64,000 nucleotides of DNA from an uncultured Methanolobus sp. (GTDB lineage: Archaea; Halobacteriota; Methanosarcinia; Methanosarcinales; Methanosarcinaceae): contig OY776215.1 of assembly GCA_963675495.1 (NCBI GenBank), forward strand, positions 1,632,001 through 1,696,000. The letters are read 5' to 3'. Shown here in pieces: positions 56,692-64,000 of this stretch. A program made the translations under genes and the position numbers. Below the pieces are notes generated by a model. The model had not been told where the DNA came from. It made no database searches and saw only the letters and a list, made by a program, of their open reading frames with translations. Positions within the stretch are counted from its first letter, which is position 1, and each line of letters opens with the position of its first letter.

Positions 56692-57711
56692 TCAATATTT
56701 GTGGCTCTTTGCCATCTCGATCATTGCCTGGAGGTTCTCGGTAGGAGTCTTGCTCACAATACCGCATCCTGGTGCCAGCAGACCAATTCCTGCATCCAGA
56801 ACCTTCTGTGACTGTTCCTTGATCTCCTCAGGTGTCCTGTTCCAGAGCATGTTAACAGGATCAAGGTTACCAACGATGACAGCATTTTTCACATTTCCTA
56901 CAGCAGTTGCAGCATCTACATTCTGGTCAACACTTATACCATCCACACCGCATGTTTCCATGACTCCAAGACCCTGGGTGGTGTCACCACAGACGTGCAG
57001 TACTGTTGGAACATTAAGCTCACGCATAGCATCACAGACCTTCTTGTGGAAAGGTACCACGAACTTCTCGTAGAACTCATTACCGATAAGCTGTGGACTT
57101 GCGGTTGGGTCAATGATGACCATTGTGTCTGCACCGTTCTCTACCATCTTCTTTGCATATGCAACACTGAACTCAGTTGTGAATTCCATGAGTGCAAGAC
57201 CAAATTCCTCCTTTGTCATAATAGCCATGAACCACTCGTCACCATTGATGTGCTGAGCGAGGGAGAAAGGACCGATCATGCTGCCCATAATAGGAAGTTC
57301 GCCTCCATACTTGTCTGCAAGGATCTTGATAGCATCACATACGACGTTGATCCTGCCGTTGTCAAGGGTGTAGCCTTTGAGCTTCTCGATGTCTTCCATG
57401 CTACTTACAACGTGACCAATCACGGATGGCTGCTGTACATCTGTACCATCTTTGATCTCACAGCCAAAGAACTCAGCTTCTGCGGTGATATCAAAAGGTA
57501 CACGTACAGCTTCAAATCCAACTACAGTGTGACCTGCTTCGGCAAGGGTTGCCATCTTTTGAGCGTCATAGTTTGCTTCAGGCCAGAAAGCGCCACAGGC
57601 TTCCATCTGTTCTACTGTTCCGGTCTGAGTTACGGATACTGCAGGCATCCTGTCAACTGGCTGACCGGTTAATGCACGTGCTAATCTTTCTTTTGGGGTA
57701 TATTCTGCCAT
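56692..57711 (-). CDS. mtbA: Methylcobamide:CoM methyltransferase, methylamine-type (MT2-A)
   Basis: Closely resembles MtbA as I recall it ([42 protein letters not shown]); Zn ligands HVC and GC. Confidence 0.88.
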
Positions 57712-58393
57712 TATATTAAACTCCTATAGTGTAATATTGTCAAATGGTGTTCACTTAGATATATATTTTTCGATTACACACTCGACAAGTTTAAATATAT
57801 AGAGGAAACAAATCTGGCTGGAAAGACATAAATATGAGATAATGATCATTATTACAAAAGCTGCTTTTCAAAAAAGATAAAATAATAATGGCTTCTTTTG
57901 TATCTGTTTTTGAACCATCTGAGCAAAAGAAAGTAGCTCTGCGCAAACCCATACTTAAACAATATATTAAAAAATGATTAAAATTTAAGAAACTAATCTA
58001 AAAACTCAAAGATACATAAAATATAAATATGATATTTTGTGCATGTTTGGTTTAACGCCTTAATAAGAGAAAAAAAGGCACCTTCGTGAGAAGTACAAGA
58101 TGAAACCCTATAATTGAGATATCTAAAATTAAGCAAAAAATAATTGATTTGTCATCATGTTATTTTTTAAAAAGTTTTGTGCATTAAGAATTACTGTAAA
58201 ATAATGACTTGGGTGTCAAATCCAAATGTCTAAAATAATAGTAGCATGCTAATATAAAATACAAAATCAAGCACATACCATGGATTTACAGAAAAATATA
58301 AATATAAGAAACAAATCTGTTCTTTATTGTAAAACTGTAATGTATACCCTTTCACTTCTGATAGGGCTATTTTGTCTAACATAGGAGAATATC

Positions 58394-59767
58394 ATGCAAA
58401 ATATCTACAAATACCTCAAATATGCAATTGGGGGGGAAAAAAGAACAGAAAGGGAGCATGACATAAAAGTTTTCAAAAAATCAGAAGAATTAGCTCTTAA
58501 ATATGAGATAAAATATGATCCAAGAGTTTTTGTGCCTGATGATCTTGAAGCTGCAGATTCTGTATTTGAAGCCGGTATTGAACTTCTTCATTCTGTAGGG
58601 ATATTCTGTAGAAGCACCCAGAGAGTTATCAATATTGACGAAGAGGATATTTTGAAGGCTTTGAATACCACAAACCCTCTTGAAATTGGAAGACTTAAAG
58701 AAAAAGTAATAGTACCAAATCGTTATCCTATGGCTTCATTTCCACCTGTGGTCATTGGCGGTCCCATGGGAGGAAGCATATCAGAGGATAATTTCCTTTA
58801 CATTAACTTAAGCTCTGCACAGGAGAACGTTGTACAAGGGATCTACAGCGGAGCCATGAAACAATTTGGCGGAGAATATATACAACCAAAAAGCCCGTTG
58901 GAGATGCTTGCAGTTCTCAAAGCATCCAGAAATGAGAGACTGGCTACCAAAATAGCCGGTAGAGAAGGACTTGCTCTTATGGGTCCAAGCACCTCAACGC
59001 TTACAACATCATCTTTGCTTGTATCATCAGATGAACTTTATTCAAGTGCTGACCCCCAGGAAGTTTACATGGATGATTTGAAAGTGGACTATGAGACCCT
59101 GTCAAAATGCATTTATCATCAGGAACATGGTAATCACTACATATCAGGCCAGGTACCTGTTTTCGGAGGACCATGTATCGGTTCCCCTGAAGGACTTGCC
59201 ATCATAGATGTAGCTGAAACCCTGCAATCAAAAGTTCTGGCTCACTCCAGTATACACGCATCCGGTGCAGTACATTCTGAAACGGGCTCATCATCTGCCA
59301 AAGAGATACTGTGGGCATCAAATATGTCATCCCTTGCACTTTCCAGAAATATGAACTATTATACTGCAAGATACTACTGGAACTGTGCTGGCATCTGCAC
59401 GGACATGATGTTCTATGAGACTGCTGCACAGACTATTGGCGACACTGTATGCGGTAGGAACATACTGCTTGGACCTGCTGGCAGACTTGGAAGCGTCCCT
59501 GACCATTCATCCGGACTCGAATCTCGATTCATGGGTGAAATTGCCCAAATGGCAACCCACCTGACCCTCTCTGAAGCTAATAAACTCGTGGCAAAGATAT
59601 ATGCAAAATATGCTGATCGCCTCAAAACCCCACCACAAGGAAAATCCTTCGAAAAATGTTACAACATACGCTCTGAATACGATATGGAACCCACCGAGGA
59701 GTATCTGGCACTTTACAGGAGGATATCTTACGATATATTAGGAGACTTCCCTGGAGAACCGGTTTGA
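58394..59767 (+). CDS. mtmB: MtmB (monomethylamine:corrinoid methyltransferase)-family protein lacking pyrrolysine
   Basis: GGPMG..ISED, PKSP.E, AGREGLALMGP, Q.P.FGG, CAG.CT.M..E..AQ, G.ESR.MGE and GKSF.KCY motifs; no in-frame TAG. Confidence 0.88.
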   Translation: MQNIYKYLKYAIGGEKRTEREHDIKVFKKSEELALKYEIKYDPRVFVPDDLEAADSVFEAGIELLHSVGIFCRSTQRVINIDEEDILKALNTTNPLEIGRLKEKVIVPNRYPMASFPPVVIGGPMGGSISEDNFLYINLSSAQENVVQGIYSGAMKQFGGEYIQPKSPLEMLAVLKASRNERLATKIAGREGLALMGPSTSTLTTSSLLVSSDELYSSADPQEVYMDDLKVDYETLSKCIYHQEHGNHYISGQVPVFGGPCIGSPEGLAIIDVAETLQSKVLAHSSIHASGAVHSETGSSSAKEILWASNMSSLALSRNMNYYTARYYWNCAGICTDMMFYETAAQTIGDTVCGRNILLGPAGRLGSVPDHSSGLESRFMGEIAQMATHLTLSEANKLVAKIYAKYADRLKTPPQGKSFEKCYNIRSEYDMEPTEEYLALYRRISYDILGDFPGEPV

Positions 59768-59999
59768 TCTGATATTTAATGACCTTTTTTCTATCAGATT
59801 GTATTTTTGTCTCCTGCACCAAAATATGTTATTCAAAGATATATAAATGGTCTTTTGATTCTATTTCAACCAATAAGAGGGTCGTTGAATCAAGGACTAT
59901 TTATAAGTGTACAACCTTGTCTTTTCGGGGTTTATTTTCAGCATAAGTTTTTCTAGTAGGATCAAGGACCCTAGCAATAGCAAGTTTGGGAAAATACGC

Positions 60000-61055
60000 A
60001 TGGTTACATCAAATGAAAAAAGCTCTATGGAAAAATTGCTGTTTGGTATGGGTGAACCAATTGCAACCATTCAAAAAAGTATATCTGACTTTGAATCCGG
60101 TAAAAGAGTGAATATCGCCATATTAGCTCCCCCTTATGCAGGAAAATCTCAACTTGTGGATGAAATTGTCAAAATGTATTCACATAAAGTAACAAAAGTC
60201 AGTTTTTCATCTATAATCAATAACAAGAATGAGATACCTTTGACTGAAGAATCTGCTAAGATTAATATATTTGATAATTGCCACTACCTGTATACGAGAA
60301 GCATCGGTGGATTCGATGTTATCAAAGAGTTTCTCAATATTATACTTTCTTCTGATGAAAAAATCCACATAAGCACATGGAATATCCACTCGTGGAATTA
60401 CCTTGATCAGGTATTGGACATAGGCAGATATTTCCCAGTACAAATAACGATTCCACCACTTGATCCTGCAGAGATGAAGGAATTCTTGCTTTCAGCATAT
60501 AAAGATAATGAAATACAGTTTGTGAATGACAGTGATGTAAGTGAGAAAAAAATATTTACTGCAGTTAAAAAACCAATTACAGAAAAGATTACCCATCGTA
60601 CTATAAATCTATACAGTCTACAAATCAACCATGTTGCCCTTAAAGCACTTCTACATAACAGAAAAACAGATGAAACTCCGGAATCCATTATCTTTAAAGA
60701 GATTACAAAGGTCTCACACGGAAATCCAGGGGTTGCAAAGGAAATATGGGACAAATGGCTAGAATACCCTGTGATAAAAACAAGTGGCAAGAATAACGAC
60801 TTCGATGCCATAGATCTTGATGATACGGGAAGATTTGTCCTTTACATTATATTGTCAATGGGCCATATCACAAAAGAAGAAATGAACAAAATTCTGTATA
60901 AGAGTCATAATGTAGATGAGATCGTAATTAATAAAATATTATTTGAAATGCTTGATCAGGATCTAATAACTATAAATGATGATTATTACAGTATAAAAAC
61001 AGAAAAACTATATCATGTTATCAAATATTTAGAGAAAATCCGGTTGGTGTGGTAA
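60000..61055 (+). CDS. Uncharacterised P-loop ATPase (AAA/STAND-like) with C-terminal wHTH
   Basis: APPYAGKS, hhhhD (INIFDNCH) and SHGNPGVA..IW motifs. Confidence 0.75.
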   Translation: MVTSNEKSSMEKLLFGMGEPIATIQKSISDFESGKRVNIAILAPPYAGKSQLVDEIVKMYSHKVTKVSFSSIINNKNEIPLTEESAKINIFDNCHYLYTRSIGGFDVIKEFLNIILSSDEKIHISTWNIHSWNYLDQVLDIGRYFPVQITIPPLDPAEMKEFLLSAYKDNEIQFVNDSDVSEKKIFTAVKKPITEKITHRTINLYSLQINHVALKALLHNRKTDETPESIIFKEITKVSHGNPGVAKEIWDKWLEYPVIKTSGKNNDFDAIDLDDTGRFVLYIILSMGHITKEEMNKILYKSHNVDEIVINKILFEMLDQDLITINDDYYSIKTEKLYHVIKYLEKIRLVW

Positions 61056-61882
61056 TGGCTGAATTGGATGTTGAAACCATCGTCACGAATTTTGGGAACA
61101 TTGACACAAGTACTGTGCTTGTCTCTTTTGCCATCATAATCCTTGCCTACGTTCTTTCAAAGATAGTGGCATTTCTGCTGACAAAGTTTTCAGAAATGAC
61201 ATGGAAATACAGGTTACACTTAAAGAATATGATCTCTATTTCCAGGGTTCTCATTTATTCATTGGCTGTCTATTACATTTTAGCCTCTGTATTTGCACTG
61301 TCTTTGAACCAGCTGGTGATACTAAGTGGTTTTATTGGTGCTGTAATTGGATTTGGTCTGAGGAACCTTTTTGAGGATATTGCAGCAGGAATTATCATCG
61401 TAATGGAAAAACCATACCAAGTAGGAGACAGGATACAAATGGGTGACTACTACGGAGAAGTAAAGGATATAGGACTCAGAGCTACCCTTATTGTCACTCC
61501 TGATGATGATCTAGTGTCAGCCCCAAACAATCTTGTATTCACACAATGTGTGGCAAGCGGCAATTCAGGCAGTTCGGAAATGATGGCCACGCTGGACATC
61601 TATATAGAGAACAATTCTGATATCGAACTGGCAATGAAAATATTAAAAGAAGCCATTGTTACTTCAAGATTCGTATACATATCTCCCACCAGACCCGTTG
61701 TTATCCTTTTAAAGGATCACCCTTTCTACGTGAGTCTAAAAGCAAAGGCATACGTGAACGACCTCAGAGATGAATTCGTATTCAGATCAGATATAACCCA
61801 GAGAACCTGGAATGAATTCTATAAAAGAGGAATTAAACCACCTAAAGCAAATATTCTGAACTATGAGAATACAGCTGAATGA
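61055..61882 (+). CDS. MscS-family mechanosensitive channel
   Basis: Three TM segments; IGFGL..LFEDI.AG, KPYQVGDRI and GEV.DIGLR motifs; TAATG overlap with the ATPase. Confidence 0.92.
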   Translation: MAELDVETIVTNFGNIDTSTVLVSFAIIILAYVLSKIVAFLLTKFSEMTWKYRLHLKNMISISRVLIYSLAVYYILASVFALSLNQLVILSGFIGAVIGFGLRNLFEDIAAGIIIVMEKPYQVGDRIQMGDYYGEVKDIGLRATLIVTPDDDLVSAPNNLVFTQCVASGNSGSSEMMATLDIYIENNSDIELAMKILKEAIVTSRFVYISPTRPVVILLKDHPFYVSLKAKAYVNDLRDEFVFRSDITQRTWNEFYKRGIKPPKANILNYENTAE

Positions 61883-62059
61883 TGTAAGGAACAAAGAAGT
61901 AAGACATATTCTCTCTCTGTTCTTGGCTCTGAAAGAATCGTGCTCCCTGTACCAAAAATCCCTTTTTGAATATATTTTGTAATGGTGCGATAGTCACATC
62001 TTTTCTACATAGTACAATAACTATTATTACTTGCATAGACTATGATAATTGGGAAAATA

Positions 62060-64000
62060 ATGGCTGAGGATGATAATTTTTCAACTAACGCTCAAGAGCC
62101 TACTTTGCAGGAGCAAGTTCATGAACACAAAGTAGCCAAAGGCAAGCTTTTCGGTACCTTTGATGGTGTTTTCACACCAACAATGCTCACAATCCTGGGA
62201 GTGATAATGTACCTGAGAGAAGGATGGATAGTTGGAAATGCAGGTCTTCTGGGTGCCTGGCTCATTATTTTACTTTCATGTAGTATCACATTCCTAACGG
62301 GATTGTCACTCTCGTCAATCACAACAAATATCCGTATTGGTGCAGGTGGTGCTTTCTCTATAATATCTCAATCATTGGGACTTGAAGTAGGAGGAAGCAT
62401 CGGCATTCCACTTTATCTGGCACAAGCTCTTGCAGTGGCCATGTATATATTTGGATTCCGTACCGGCTGGCAATGGATCTTCCCAGACCATCCGGCAATT
62501 CTTATAGATCTTGGTACTTTTGCAGCTCTTTTCATCATTGCTTACATAAGTGCCACTCTTGCATTCAGGATCCAGTACGTAATTATGGCAATCATTGCCG
62601 GTTCCCTAATCTCCGTATTCTGGACGTTATATTCGGTCCCGTTGCAACAACCCATAACATGGTGGGGAACATTTCCGGGTTCTCCTGAGAACATGTTCAC
62701 AGGAATTGGGTTCTGGGCACTTTTTGCAGTGTTCTTCCCTGCAGCCACAGGTATAATGGCCGGAGCGAACATGTCAGGAGAACTGAAAAACCCACGTAAA
62801 AATATTCCTGTGGGTACCATGTCAGCGATTATATTAAGCACAATAATTTATCTTTTGCTGGCTTACTGGCTTATACGCTCTGCAACCCCAGGTGAACTTG
62901 TCAGCAATTACACTATAATGATAGACAAGGCCGCATGGGGTCCTATAGTTGTGGCAGGCCTACTTGGAGCAACATTTTCTTCTGCGCTATCTTCCATCGT
63001 TGGTGCACCAAGAATATTGCAAGCTCTTGGAGATAGCCAAATTCTTCCAAAAAGCAAATGGTTCTCTATAAGAACACAATCTGGCGAACCCAGAAACTCT
63101 ATAATATTCACAGGTATTATTGTACTTCTTGCATTGATGCTTCGAGACCTCAATGCTATTGCTCCTCTTATTACCATGTTCTTCCTGCTCACATATGCAA
63201 TGATCAATGTTGTGGTGTTCATGGAGCAAAGTCTGAACCTGGTAAGTTTCAGGCCTCTTTTCAGAATACCCCGGGCTGTATCATTCCTTGGAGCAGCAGG
63301 TTGTCTCTTTGTCATGTTCACAGTAAACTCTACATTCAGTCTTGTGGCAGTGGTAATTGTTGTATCTATACATAGTGTTCTTTTGCGCAAACATCTTAAA
63401 GCACCTTTTGGAGATGTGCGCAGCGGACTTTTTGTAGCACTGGCTGAATGGGCAGCAAAAAGAGTTAATGAGCTTACTGCATCCAGGGAAAGAGCATGGA
63501 GAGCAAACATATTGGTTCCTGTGGAAGACCCACAAGAACTAAGAGGTATGTTCAATCTGATAAGAGACATCGCCTATCCAAAAGGGTTTATCAAACTTTT
63601 AGGTCTGACTGGCAAAGTAGAAGACAAGGAACTATATTCAAGACTACCGGACATCACACAATCATTTCAGGATGAAGGTGTTTTCTCATCATGGACGATA
63701 ATAGATGTCCCAGCTTTTGAAGATAACCTTATTGCAGGTATGGAAGCTCTGGGGGGGGCATTTTTCCGCCCAAATATCATACTCCTGACACCACCATTAG
63801 CAAAAGAGCGAGAAGAGGACATTAGGATACTTGTACAAAAGGCATTGCAGAACCATATAGGTGCTGTGATATATGCAGCTCATCCGAAATCCGGCCTTGG
63901 AAGACATAAATCTATCAACCTCTGGATAGATGACAAAAGCCCGGACTGGGAGATCAGCATGAACCTCGGAAATATGGACCTTGCAATTCTAATAGCATAC
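62060..64000 (+). CDS. Cation-chloride cotransporter (SLC12-like) APC-family protein, 3'-truncated by window
   Basis: Read from DNA: FGTFDGVFTPTMLTILGVIMYLREGWIVG, GAGGAFSIISQSLG, FFPAATGIMAGANMSGEL, GAPRILQA; frame appears open to the window end. Confidence 0.88.
   Translation, partial: MAEDDNFSTNAQEPTLQEQVHEHKVAKGKLFGTFDGVFTPTMLTILGVIMYLREGWIVGNAGLLGAWLIILLSCSITFLTGLSLSSITTNIRIGAGGAFSIISQSLGLEVGGSIGIPLYLAQALAVAMYIFGFRTGWQWIFPDHPAILIDLGTFAALFIIAYISATLAFRIQYVIMAIIAGSLISVFWTLYSVPLQQPITWWGTFPGSPENMFTGIGFWALFAVFFPAATGIMAGANMSGELKNPRKNIPVGTMSAIILSTIIYLLLAYWLIRSATPGELVSNYTIMIDKAAWGPIVVAGLLGATFSSALSSIVGAPRILQALGDSQILPKSKWFSIRTQSGEPRNSIIFTGIIVLLALMLRDLNAIAPLITMFFLLTYAMINVVVFMEQSLNLVSFRPLFRIPRAVSFLGAAGCLFVMFTVNSTFSLVAVVIVVSIHSVLLRKHLKAPFGDVRSGLFVALAEWAAKRVNELTASRERAWRANILVPVEDPQELRGMFNLIRDIAYPKGFIKLLGLTGKVEDKELYSRLPDITQSFQDEGVFSSWTIIDVPAFEDNLIAGMEALGGAFFRPNIILLTPPLAKEREEDIRILVQKALQNHIGAVIYAAHPKSGLGRHKSINLWIDDKSPDWEISMNLGNMDLAILIAY

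Follow-up and report, generated by a model that had tools for sequence, protein, structure and literature searches.

Pyrrolysine (Pyl), residue 202 of the methylamine methyltransferase MtmB, sits at the centre of the barrel of that enzyme (PMC9842639). A homologue of MtmB that lacks this residue is encoded in a stretch of 64,000 nucleotides (below, the window, meaning the whole of the DNA that was analysed) from an uncultured Methanolobus sp., assembly GCA_963675495.1, contig OY776215.1, positions 1,632,001 to 1,696,000. The gene and its product of 457 amino acids, here called P0001, lie head-to-head with mtbA, the gene of a methylcobamide:coenzyme M (CoM) methyltransferase (Table 1). The analysis described below places P0001 in a real, widespread and uncharacterised Pyl-free clade of the MtmB family, separate from the characterised Pyl-free enzyme MtqB. 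P0001 appears with good confidence to be a catalytic methyltransferase of some kind, and a methylated ethanolamine is tentatively proposed as its substrate.

The open reading frame has zero internal stops, and its product matches the Pfam family MtmB (PF05369) over residues 3-445 with 494 bits against a cut-off of 25. This was the sole match of the Pfam search, with none to the MttB family, and a search of the ESM Atlas returned MtmB clusters only; proteins of the clade carry the database label monomethylamine methyltransferase. At 32% identity to MtmB, the AlphaFold model (predicted local distance difference test score 96) superposes on 1NTH with a TM score of 0.95, a Z score of 59 and a root-mean-square deviation of 1.5 A over 450 residues. 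In an alignment to the solved MtmB chains 1L2Q and 1TV2 (E 2e-72), repeated with the same result in two multiple alignments, Met196 occupies the Pyl202 column, where 30 close relatives have 27 ATG and 3 Leu codons and zero TAG. The same alignments pair Ser199 with Glu205, Gly252 with Glu259, Arg326 with Asn332, Tyr327 with Gln333 and Trp329 with Tyr335, while Glu223 falls on Glu229 and is the sole acid kept among Glu205, Glu229 and Glu259. Of the set Glu205, Glu229, Glu259, Gln333 and Tyr335, reportedly the pocket residues in the MtmB structure of 2002, P0001 keeps Glu229 only. Three aromatic residues, Tyr151, Tyr327 and Trp329, are conserved within the clade at columns that align with the pocket and are candidates for an amine cage of the MtgB type. 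An earlier note, made from the letters of this DNA, had described a full-length MtmB-family frame without an in-frame TAG, with Met196 in the Pyl column and the neighbouring Glu replaced by Ser, and in all of this it was right; its statement that NQYY becomes ARYY was one residue out of register.

Pyl-free members of this family are not new in principle. In Methanococcoides methylutens Q3c, cob(I)alamin is methylated by MtqB (ACT9XH_RS04775) with tetramethylammonium or choline as the donor and, weakly, with monomethylamine (11 vs 37-42 nmol/min/mg), and the same 2026 paper mentions several further Pyl-free mtmB genes of unknown function (PMC13044021); the idea of an MtmB that has no Pyl and acts on a new substrate is already in print, and the published MtqB tree may already hold the P0001 clade under the label "unknown function". 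Phylogenies were built from 176 proteins with FastTree and from 50 proteins with IQ-TREE, and in both the P0001 clade, which is starred, stands apart from Pyl MtmB and from MtqB-like proteins. In approximately unbiased (AU) tests, with groups that were named after the first tree was seen, forced union with methanogen Pyl MtmB was rejected at p-AU 2e-6, and forced union with MtqB-like proteins at p-AU 0.0003, MtqB itself being outside the tree. The label MtqB-like is inferred, and denotes corrinoid-adjacent Methanococcoides-type proteins of 459-461 amino acids with a conserved Met and Cys (L070-L072); of the 14 rows that initially bore it, the first tree placed 3 elsewhere, and the second tree and the AU test were run without 6. 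The identity of these proteins to P0001 is 28%, and the 7 genomes (of 177) that encode them all lie outside the genus of P0001; where P0001 has Ser199 and Gly252, L070, L071 and L072 carry Met and Cys, taken as Met205 and Cys259 by inferred numbering. A third Pyl-free MtmB clade (~33% identity; L034-L038, L074, L075, L077, L079) is related to the P0001 clade in both trees and mostly adjoins extra mttB, mtbB or corrinoid genes.

Set against known systems, P0001 shares with the Pyl-dependent MtmB of Methanosarcina barkeri (1NTH, 1L2Q, 1TV2) the fold, Glu229, the gene region and likely the same MtbA, but it has neither TAG nor Pyl, replaces Val157 as well as Glu205, Glu259, Gln333 and Tyr335, is located outside any mtmC operon and belongs to a separate clade; with no TAG, the pocket losses and its own clade, it is not a canonical Pyl-MtmB. 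Like MtqB, it is a Pyl-free MtmB homologue of Methanosarcinaceae with aromatic residues at 333 and 335, and its likely orthologue is produced on choline. Unlike MtqB-like proteins, it lacks Met205, Cys259 and a cognate corrinoid gene, the gene upstream being the divergent mtbA; its likely orthologue, in contrast to MtqB, is not induced on tetramethylammonium, and its clade is wider (60 vs 7 of the 177 genomes). Membership of the MtqB clade is ruled out by the 28% identity, the pocket, the missing upstream corrinoid gene and the tree. The non-Pyl MttB superfamily (MtgB, MthB, COG5598; 2QNE, 9YCE) likewise consists of corrinoid methyltransferases with a TIM barrel in which a methylated amine is bound with no help from Pyl, in MtgB by aromatic residues (PMC13080624), but it is another sequence family (12-14% identity and Z ~24 in structural alignments), and its known substrates are quaternary amines.

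The clade was found, as best matches at E 1e-100 or better, in 60 of 177 genomes of the family, namely in 33/36 of the genus of P0001, 11/13 of genus g8, 3/3 of g10, 4/11 of g11 (plus one fragment at a contig end), 6/11 of g13, 2/3 of g14 and 1/3 of g4; it is absent from the remaining genera of this set, including g15 with 0/59, and was not found in 107 sampled genomes from other families of the order. We infer that g8 is Methanococcoides and g15 Methanosarcina. Named homologues at 80-92% identity are mostly from Methanolobus with a few from Methanomethylovorans, and named records with the clade comprise Methanococcoides, Methanohalobium, Methanosalsum, Methanomethylovorans and one metagenome-assembled genome of Desulfobacterales. 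This last member (L140) and another on a metagenome contig (L181), at 66-69% identity, lie among Pyl-methylamine genes, L181 beside a split, bacterial-type pylS and pylBC; both are probably bacterial and may reflect domain-to-domain transfer. The clade is under strong purifying selection, with a median pairwise ratio of nonsynonymous to synonymous substitution rates (dN/dS) of 0.042 in the close set (145 of 435 pairs usable, that is, with dS of 0.05-1.5) and 0.066 in a second set (22 of 28); the value for Pyl mtmB is 0.115 (66 of 66 pairs), from a set that is not like-for-like.

The neighbouring mtbA passes the NCBIfam MtbA equivalog NF041608 (666 bits against a cut-off of 600) and is separated from P0001 by 682 bp. 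Among 36 loci with at least 75% identity, mtbA lies head-to-head with the clade gene in all 34 that have at least 800 bp upstream, and Pyl mtmB lies tail-to-tail within 1.6 kb in 21; since the loci come from kin genomes, these counts are not independent events. The 29 more distant loci include 15 with a Cdc6-like gene downstream, 6 with a BCCT transporter head-to-head and 2 with an adjacent corrinoid gene. A B12-binding corrinoid gene with the Asp-x-His-x-x-Gly motif is found 41 bp upstream of the clade member at L104, and a corrinoid gene follows the member downstream at L106/L188 and L140. P0001 and its relatives show a genetic link both to the CoM methylase (34/34 close loci) and, in a few members, to a corrinoid gene, as expected for the first methyltransferase of a three-component corrinoid system. 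Cdc6/Orc1-like genes adjoin distant members in either orientation (L043:10265-13424, L046, L051, L052, L104, L105) and possibly encode a dedicated regulator. As for the claims of the earlier note on context and history, the head-to-head pairing with mtbA holds, and the tree and dN/dS analysis that it called for gave a separate clade and ratios far from 1; synteny with mtbA, which it wished to see tested across Methanosarcinaceae, characterises one branch of the clade only, and the absence of an adjacent corrinoid gene is true inside the window, with mtmC located beyond its end, 6.1 kb past the stop codon.

Condition-specific information comes from the proteome of strain Q3c, as given in the supplement of PMC13044021. 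It contains peg.1048, an MtmB-family protein of 456 amino acids whose gene is followed by genes for 393, 643, 267 (RpoD), 126, 184 and 148 amino acids. The g8 loci have the same arrangement, a 456-amino-acid clade member followed by a Cdc6-like protein of ~393, a hydantoinase-like protein of ~643 and then proteins of 267, 126, 184 and 148 amino acids, and the mass of peg.1048 (50,370 Da) compares with 50,191-50,438 Da for g8 clade members. By length, mass and gene order, peg.1048 is very likely the orthologue of P0001; g8 proteins match P0001 at 8 of 10 pocket positions and differ at 2. On choline, peg.1048 is present in 4 of 4 sheets, with normalized spectral abundance factors (NSAF) of 1.5, 2.8, 1.7 and 2.5e-3, equal to those of Pyl-MtmB in the same samples (1.5-4.5e-3). 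It appears in 2 of 4 sheets on tetramethylammonium (6.8e-5, 2.6e-4) and in 2 of 4 on trimethylamine (7.5e-5, 4.3e-4), so that with non-detections taken as zero the means are 26x and 17x below choline, respectively (exact rank test of choline against the others, p 0.002, post hoc). For MtqB, values are high on tetramethylammonium as well as on choline; as peg.1048 is high on choline only, it tracks something choline-specific. The two downstream neighbours of peg.1048 rise together with it; one hydantoinase-like gene is induced by choline alongside the Q3c orthologue, and in the Methanolobus genome hydantoinase/oxoprolinase-like genes (nine full-length matches in G000:C1) recur beside methylamine and methanol methyltransferase genes. 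The available parts of the B1d proteome paper (PMC6855144) hold no data for this gene, and the start-site supplement for M. psychrophilus (PMC5378194) gave no matches.

According to a review (PMC7374477), choline is converted to ethanolamine via dimethyl- and monomethylethanolamine, which accumulate transiently and are themselves substrates of Methanococcoides. We therefore lean, at somewhat less than an even chance, towards P0001 being a corrinoid methyltransferase for N,N-dimethylethanolamine and/or N-methylethanolamine that uses a borrowed methylamine corrinoid protein and MtbA; that the whole clade might be the methyltransferase still missing for dimethyl- and monomethylethanolamine in methanogens, with an MtmB that has no Pyl taking methyl groups from an amine that is not quaternary, is held a shade more cautiously. 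In the mechanism that this would imply, a cavity would open at the barrel centre where the Pyl side chain, Glu205 and Glu259 are gone. There the N-methyl ammonium group would be enclosed by Tyr151, Tyr327, Trp329 and Met196, with Glu223 as the partner of the amine or hydroxyl; by analogy with MtgB, no covalent Pyl adduct would be needed. The methylethanolamine would lie beneath the cobalt of a borrowed corrinoid protein (MtmC, MtbC, MttC or an orphan), whose Co(I) would accept the methyl group, and MtbA would then methylate CoM. Choline and tetramethylammonium are disfavoured as substrates of P0001, and betaine, dimethylglycine and sarcosine are rejected for the main branch of the clade. A sub-branch at 53-55% identity (L048, L099-L103) is head-to-head with a BCCT transporter and has an altered pocket, with Lys at 229 in 3 of 6 and His or Arg at 335 in 4 of 6; its substrate is probably different, perhaps carboxylated. 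The BCCT link was accordingly rejected as support for P0001, as it belongs to this sub-branch. The idea of the earlier note that P0001 is an MtmB-family counterpart of MtgB is sound in principle, although MtqB came first; a conserved, selected, mtbA-linked Pyl-free paralogue most likely does act on another substrate, as it proposed, and its list of compounds for assay included the disfavoured betaine, dimethylglycine, sarcosine and choline and omitted the two methylethanolamines.

Several observations weigh against a methylethanolamine as the substrate. The substrate inference draws on one proteome from another genus, in which peg.1048 was recognised from its length and the order of its neighbours rather than from its sequence, and the distant loci, which include g8, the source of the expression data, have mtbA adjacent in 0 of 29. 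The lowest choline value of peg.1048 is just 3.5x the highest value on the other substrates, the sheets differ in depth (409 to 882 rows), and the comparison has no methanol condition. Growth was also slowest on choline (0.036 vs 0.065 and 0.16 per hour), a difference that could account for the induction, and the Cdc6-like identity of the co-induced neighbour peg.1049 could mean control by growth state. Pyl-MttB is abundant on choline (NSAF 1.5e-2, replicate 1), so Pyl enzymes may carry out the methylethanolamine steps, dimethylethanolamine being a conceivable substrate of Pyl-MttB itself. A literature search found no report of Methanolobus growth on methylethanolamines, and the present genome, with neither an MtqB-like gene nor (by one query) a BCCT homologue, would depend on supply from outside.

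Of the other explanations, the one that deserves most attention, unlikely as we consider it, is a catalytic corrinoid methyltransferase with a different donor, either a further N-methyl amine (secondary or tertiary) or a sulfur compound with methyl groups, for instance dimethylsulfide, the induction on choline then resulting from cross-talk or relief from methylamine repression. Structure, selection and context fit this explanation equally well, the altered pocket of the BCCT-linked sub-branch indicates that substrates vary within the clade, and Methanolobus makes methane from dimethylsulfide without mtsAB, for which the authors of PMC10762971 allow unknown methyltransferases. Yet the sole condition-specific data favour choline, MtbA, to which the clade gene is linked by conserved gene order, is specific for amines, and two of the N-methyl amines are not used: dimethylglycine by M. 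seepicolus LLY (PMC8547467), whose record carries the clade gene (L143), and dimethylglycine and sarcosine by the Methanococcoides strains of the review (PMC7374477). P0001 might also be a partner or sensor, that is, an MtmB-like subunit that binds an amine, enters MtmB hexamers or controls them, or sends a signal by way of the Cdc6-like neighbour. The missing cognate corrinoid gene in 63 of 65 loci (counting matches up to 1 kb upstream or 1.6 kb downstream, and not counting two mtmC of an opposite-strand mtmCB operon), the usual place of the clade gene beside Pyl mtmB, and the Cdc6-like gene that follows it in 15 of the 29 distant loci would suit such a role, which we nevertheless consider improbable: some members have a corrinoid gene of their own, Methanosarcina-type genomes have Pyl mtmB without the clade gene (0/59 in g15), and peg.1048, unlike an MtmB subunit, reaches the level of Pyl-MtmB on choline and is near-absent when MtmB works on trimethylamine or tetramethylammonium.

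The same scarcity of peg.1048, exactly during monomethylamine turnover, argues against a Pyl-independent, low-rate monomethylamine methyltransferase serving under slow growth or shortage of nitrogen or pyrrolysine, a role otherwise in keeping with the location of the gene in the monomethylamine part of the cluster, the residual activity of MtqB (PMC13044021) and the maximum of peg.1048 in the slowest condition. The enlarged aromatic pocket would suit a bigger ligand, and nitrogen shortage finds weak counter-evidence among the annotated rows, which are only some of those of the first replicates: P-II, ammonium transporter and nitrogenase rows are lacking, and glutamine synthetase occurs solely in the trimethylamine sheet; we accord this role only a slim chance. 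A decaying, functionless mtmB duplicate is scarcely credible. One copy is broken (G083, in an assembly 67% complete) and the gene is absent from some complete genomes, e.g. G028, but dN/dS of 0.04-0.07, presence in 60 of 177 genomes and a separate deep clade speak against decay, and the pseudogene reading is largely refuted by that selection together with detection of the likely orthologue as protein. A literature search, which left subscription journals mostly uncovered, found no paper on the clade or on a methylethanolamine methyltransferase, and the available parts of PMC12180501, PMC3639795 and PMC6331629 have nothing on this gene.

Table 1. Coordinates in the window of P0001, its pocket-aligned residues and the elements towards mtbA.
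Feature	Position	Strand	Evidence or conservation
mtbA, methylcobamide:CoM methyltransferase, 339 aa	56692..57711	-	NF041608, 666 bits
TATA-like element facing mtbA, putative promoter	57760..57770	-	sequence; most columns invariant in 22 aligned spacers
Distal BRE/TATA-like element, putative promoter	58018..58029	+	365 bp before start codon; core kept in 22 spacers
Proximal BRE/TATA-like element, identical to distal, putative promoter	58293..58304	+	motif match; 22-spacer alignment
AGGAGA, ribosome-binding-site-like	58383..58388	+	5 bp before ATG; similar purine-rich element in relatives
P0001, Pyl-free MtmB-family gene, 457 aa	58394..59767	+	open reading frame call, PF05369, structure alignment, model
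Tyr151 (MtmB Val157)	58844..58846	+	invariant, 45/45 clade sequences
Met196 (Pyl202 column)	58979..58981	+	Met 35/45, remainder Leu/Phe/Val/Ile
Glu223 (MtmB Glu229), sole retained pocket acid	59060..59062	+	40/45; Lys in 5
Gly252 (MtmB Glu259; Cys in MtqB-like proteins)	59147..59149	+	37/45
Tyr327-Tyr328-Trp329 (MtmB Gln333-Tyr334-Tyr335), candidate aromatic cage	59372..59380	+	Tyr327 43/45, Trp329 40/45

The spacer between the two genes contains two identical 12-mers that resemble a TFB-recognition element (BRE) with a TATA box; these are the only 2 matches in the window, both on the + strand of the spacer, where 0.03 would be expected by chance. Both are conserved in relatives, and they may mark promoters in tandem, an extended leader or a small RNA. 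An Rfam search of the spacer gave 0 matches, and a sigma-70 promoter scan, a model unsuited to archaea, remained at chance level. Of four RNA-labelled runs, X4 has contigs over a relative's gene (~81% alike) and mtbA with the spacer uncovered, X1 covers mtbA only, and X2 and X3 may be DNA; contigs of this kind cannot show transcription level, and none of these runs was used as support.

The closed genome of 2.87 Mb encodes tRNA-Pyl and has two mtmB genes with an amber codon. Its second mtbA lies in the same region as the copy in the window (G000:C1:1727511-1728530), to which it is 97.6% identical; a 58-codon mtbA remnant lies near tRNA-Pyl (G000:C1:1716879-1717052). P0001 is at the edge of this region, which spans ~55 kb and holds mtmBC, mtbBC, mttBCP, permeases and pyl genes, with Pyl mtmB 4.7 kb past the stop codon of P0001, just outside the window. 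Three genes, encoding a 382-amino-acid P-loop-like protein without a Pfam match, MscS and a cation-chloride cotransporter, separate P0001 from mtmB (window 59907-64000; G000:C1:1691907-1696303), as in a few relatives; in most, the clade gene and mtmB are adjacent. Elsewhere, three corrinoid genes have no evident methyltransferase B partner (G000:C1:2045896-2046567, 2612311-2613021 and 2685517-2687386), and their products are candidate partners for P0001; one of them is 66% like MtmC and stands beside an MtbA-like gene. A complex prediction for P0001 with the MtmC of this genome gave no answer (score 0.01, mark 0.32). No MtqB-like gene was found in this genome, and a single query for each detected neither another mttB-type gene nor a BCCT transporter.

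For the conversion of choline to ethanolamine in some Methanococcoides, the first demethylation has an enzyme, MtqB, and the literature search found none for the next two; a candidate that is kept in a third of the family genomes and in 33 of 36 of its own genus would make this gap directly testable. If the proposal is true, it would point to a range of substrates yet to be tested in the methylotrophic methanogens that dominate marine settings, and to an unrecognised route to methane from products of choline and phospholipid breakdown released by other microbes. Cross-feeding of this kind is plausible, as acetogens release dimethylethanolamine from choline (PMC12155760). Most Methanolobus, Methanococcoides and related obligate methylotrophs would have the route, as would some bacteria that use Pyl, and an enzyme that demethylates a secondary or tertiary amine with no Pyl of its own would bear on the need for pyrrolysine with simple methylamines. 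Whatever the substrate, the monomethylamine methyltransferase labels now carried by these proteins inflate mtmB counts in environmental surveys.

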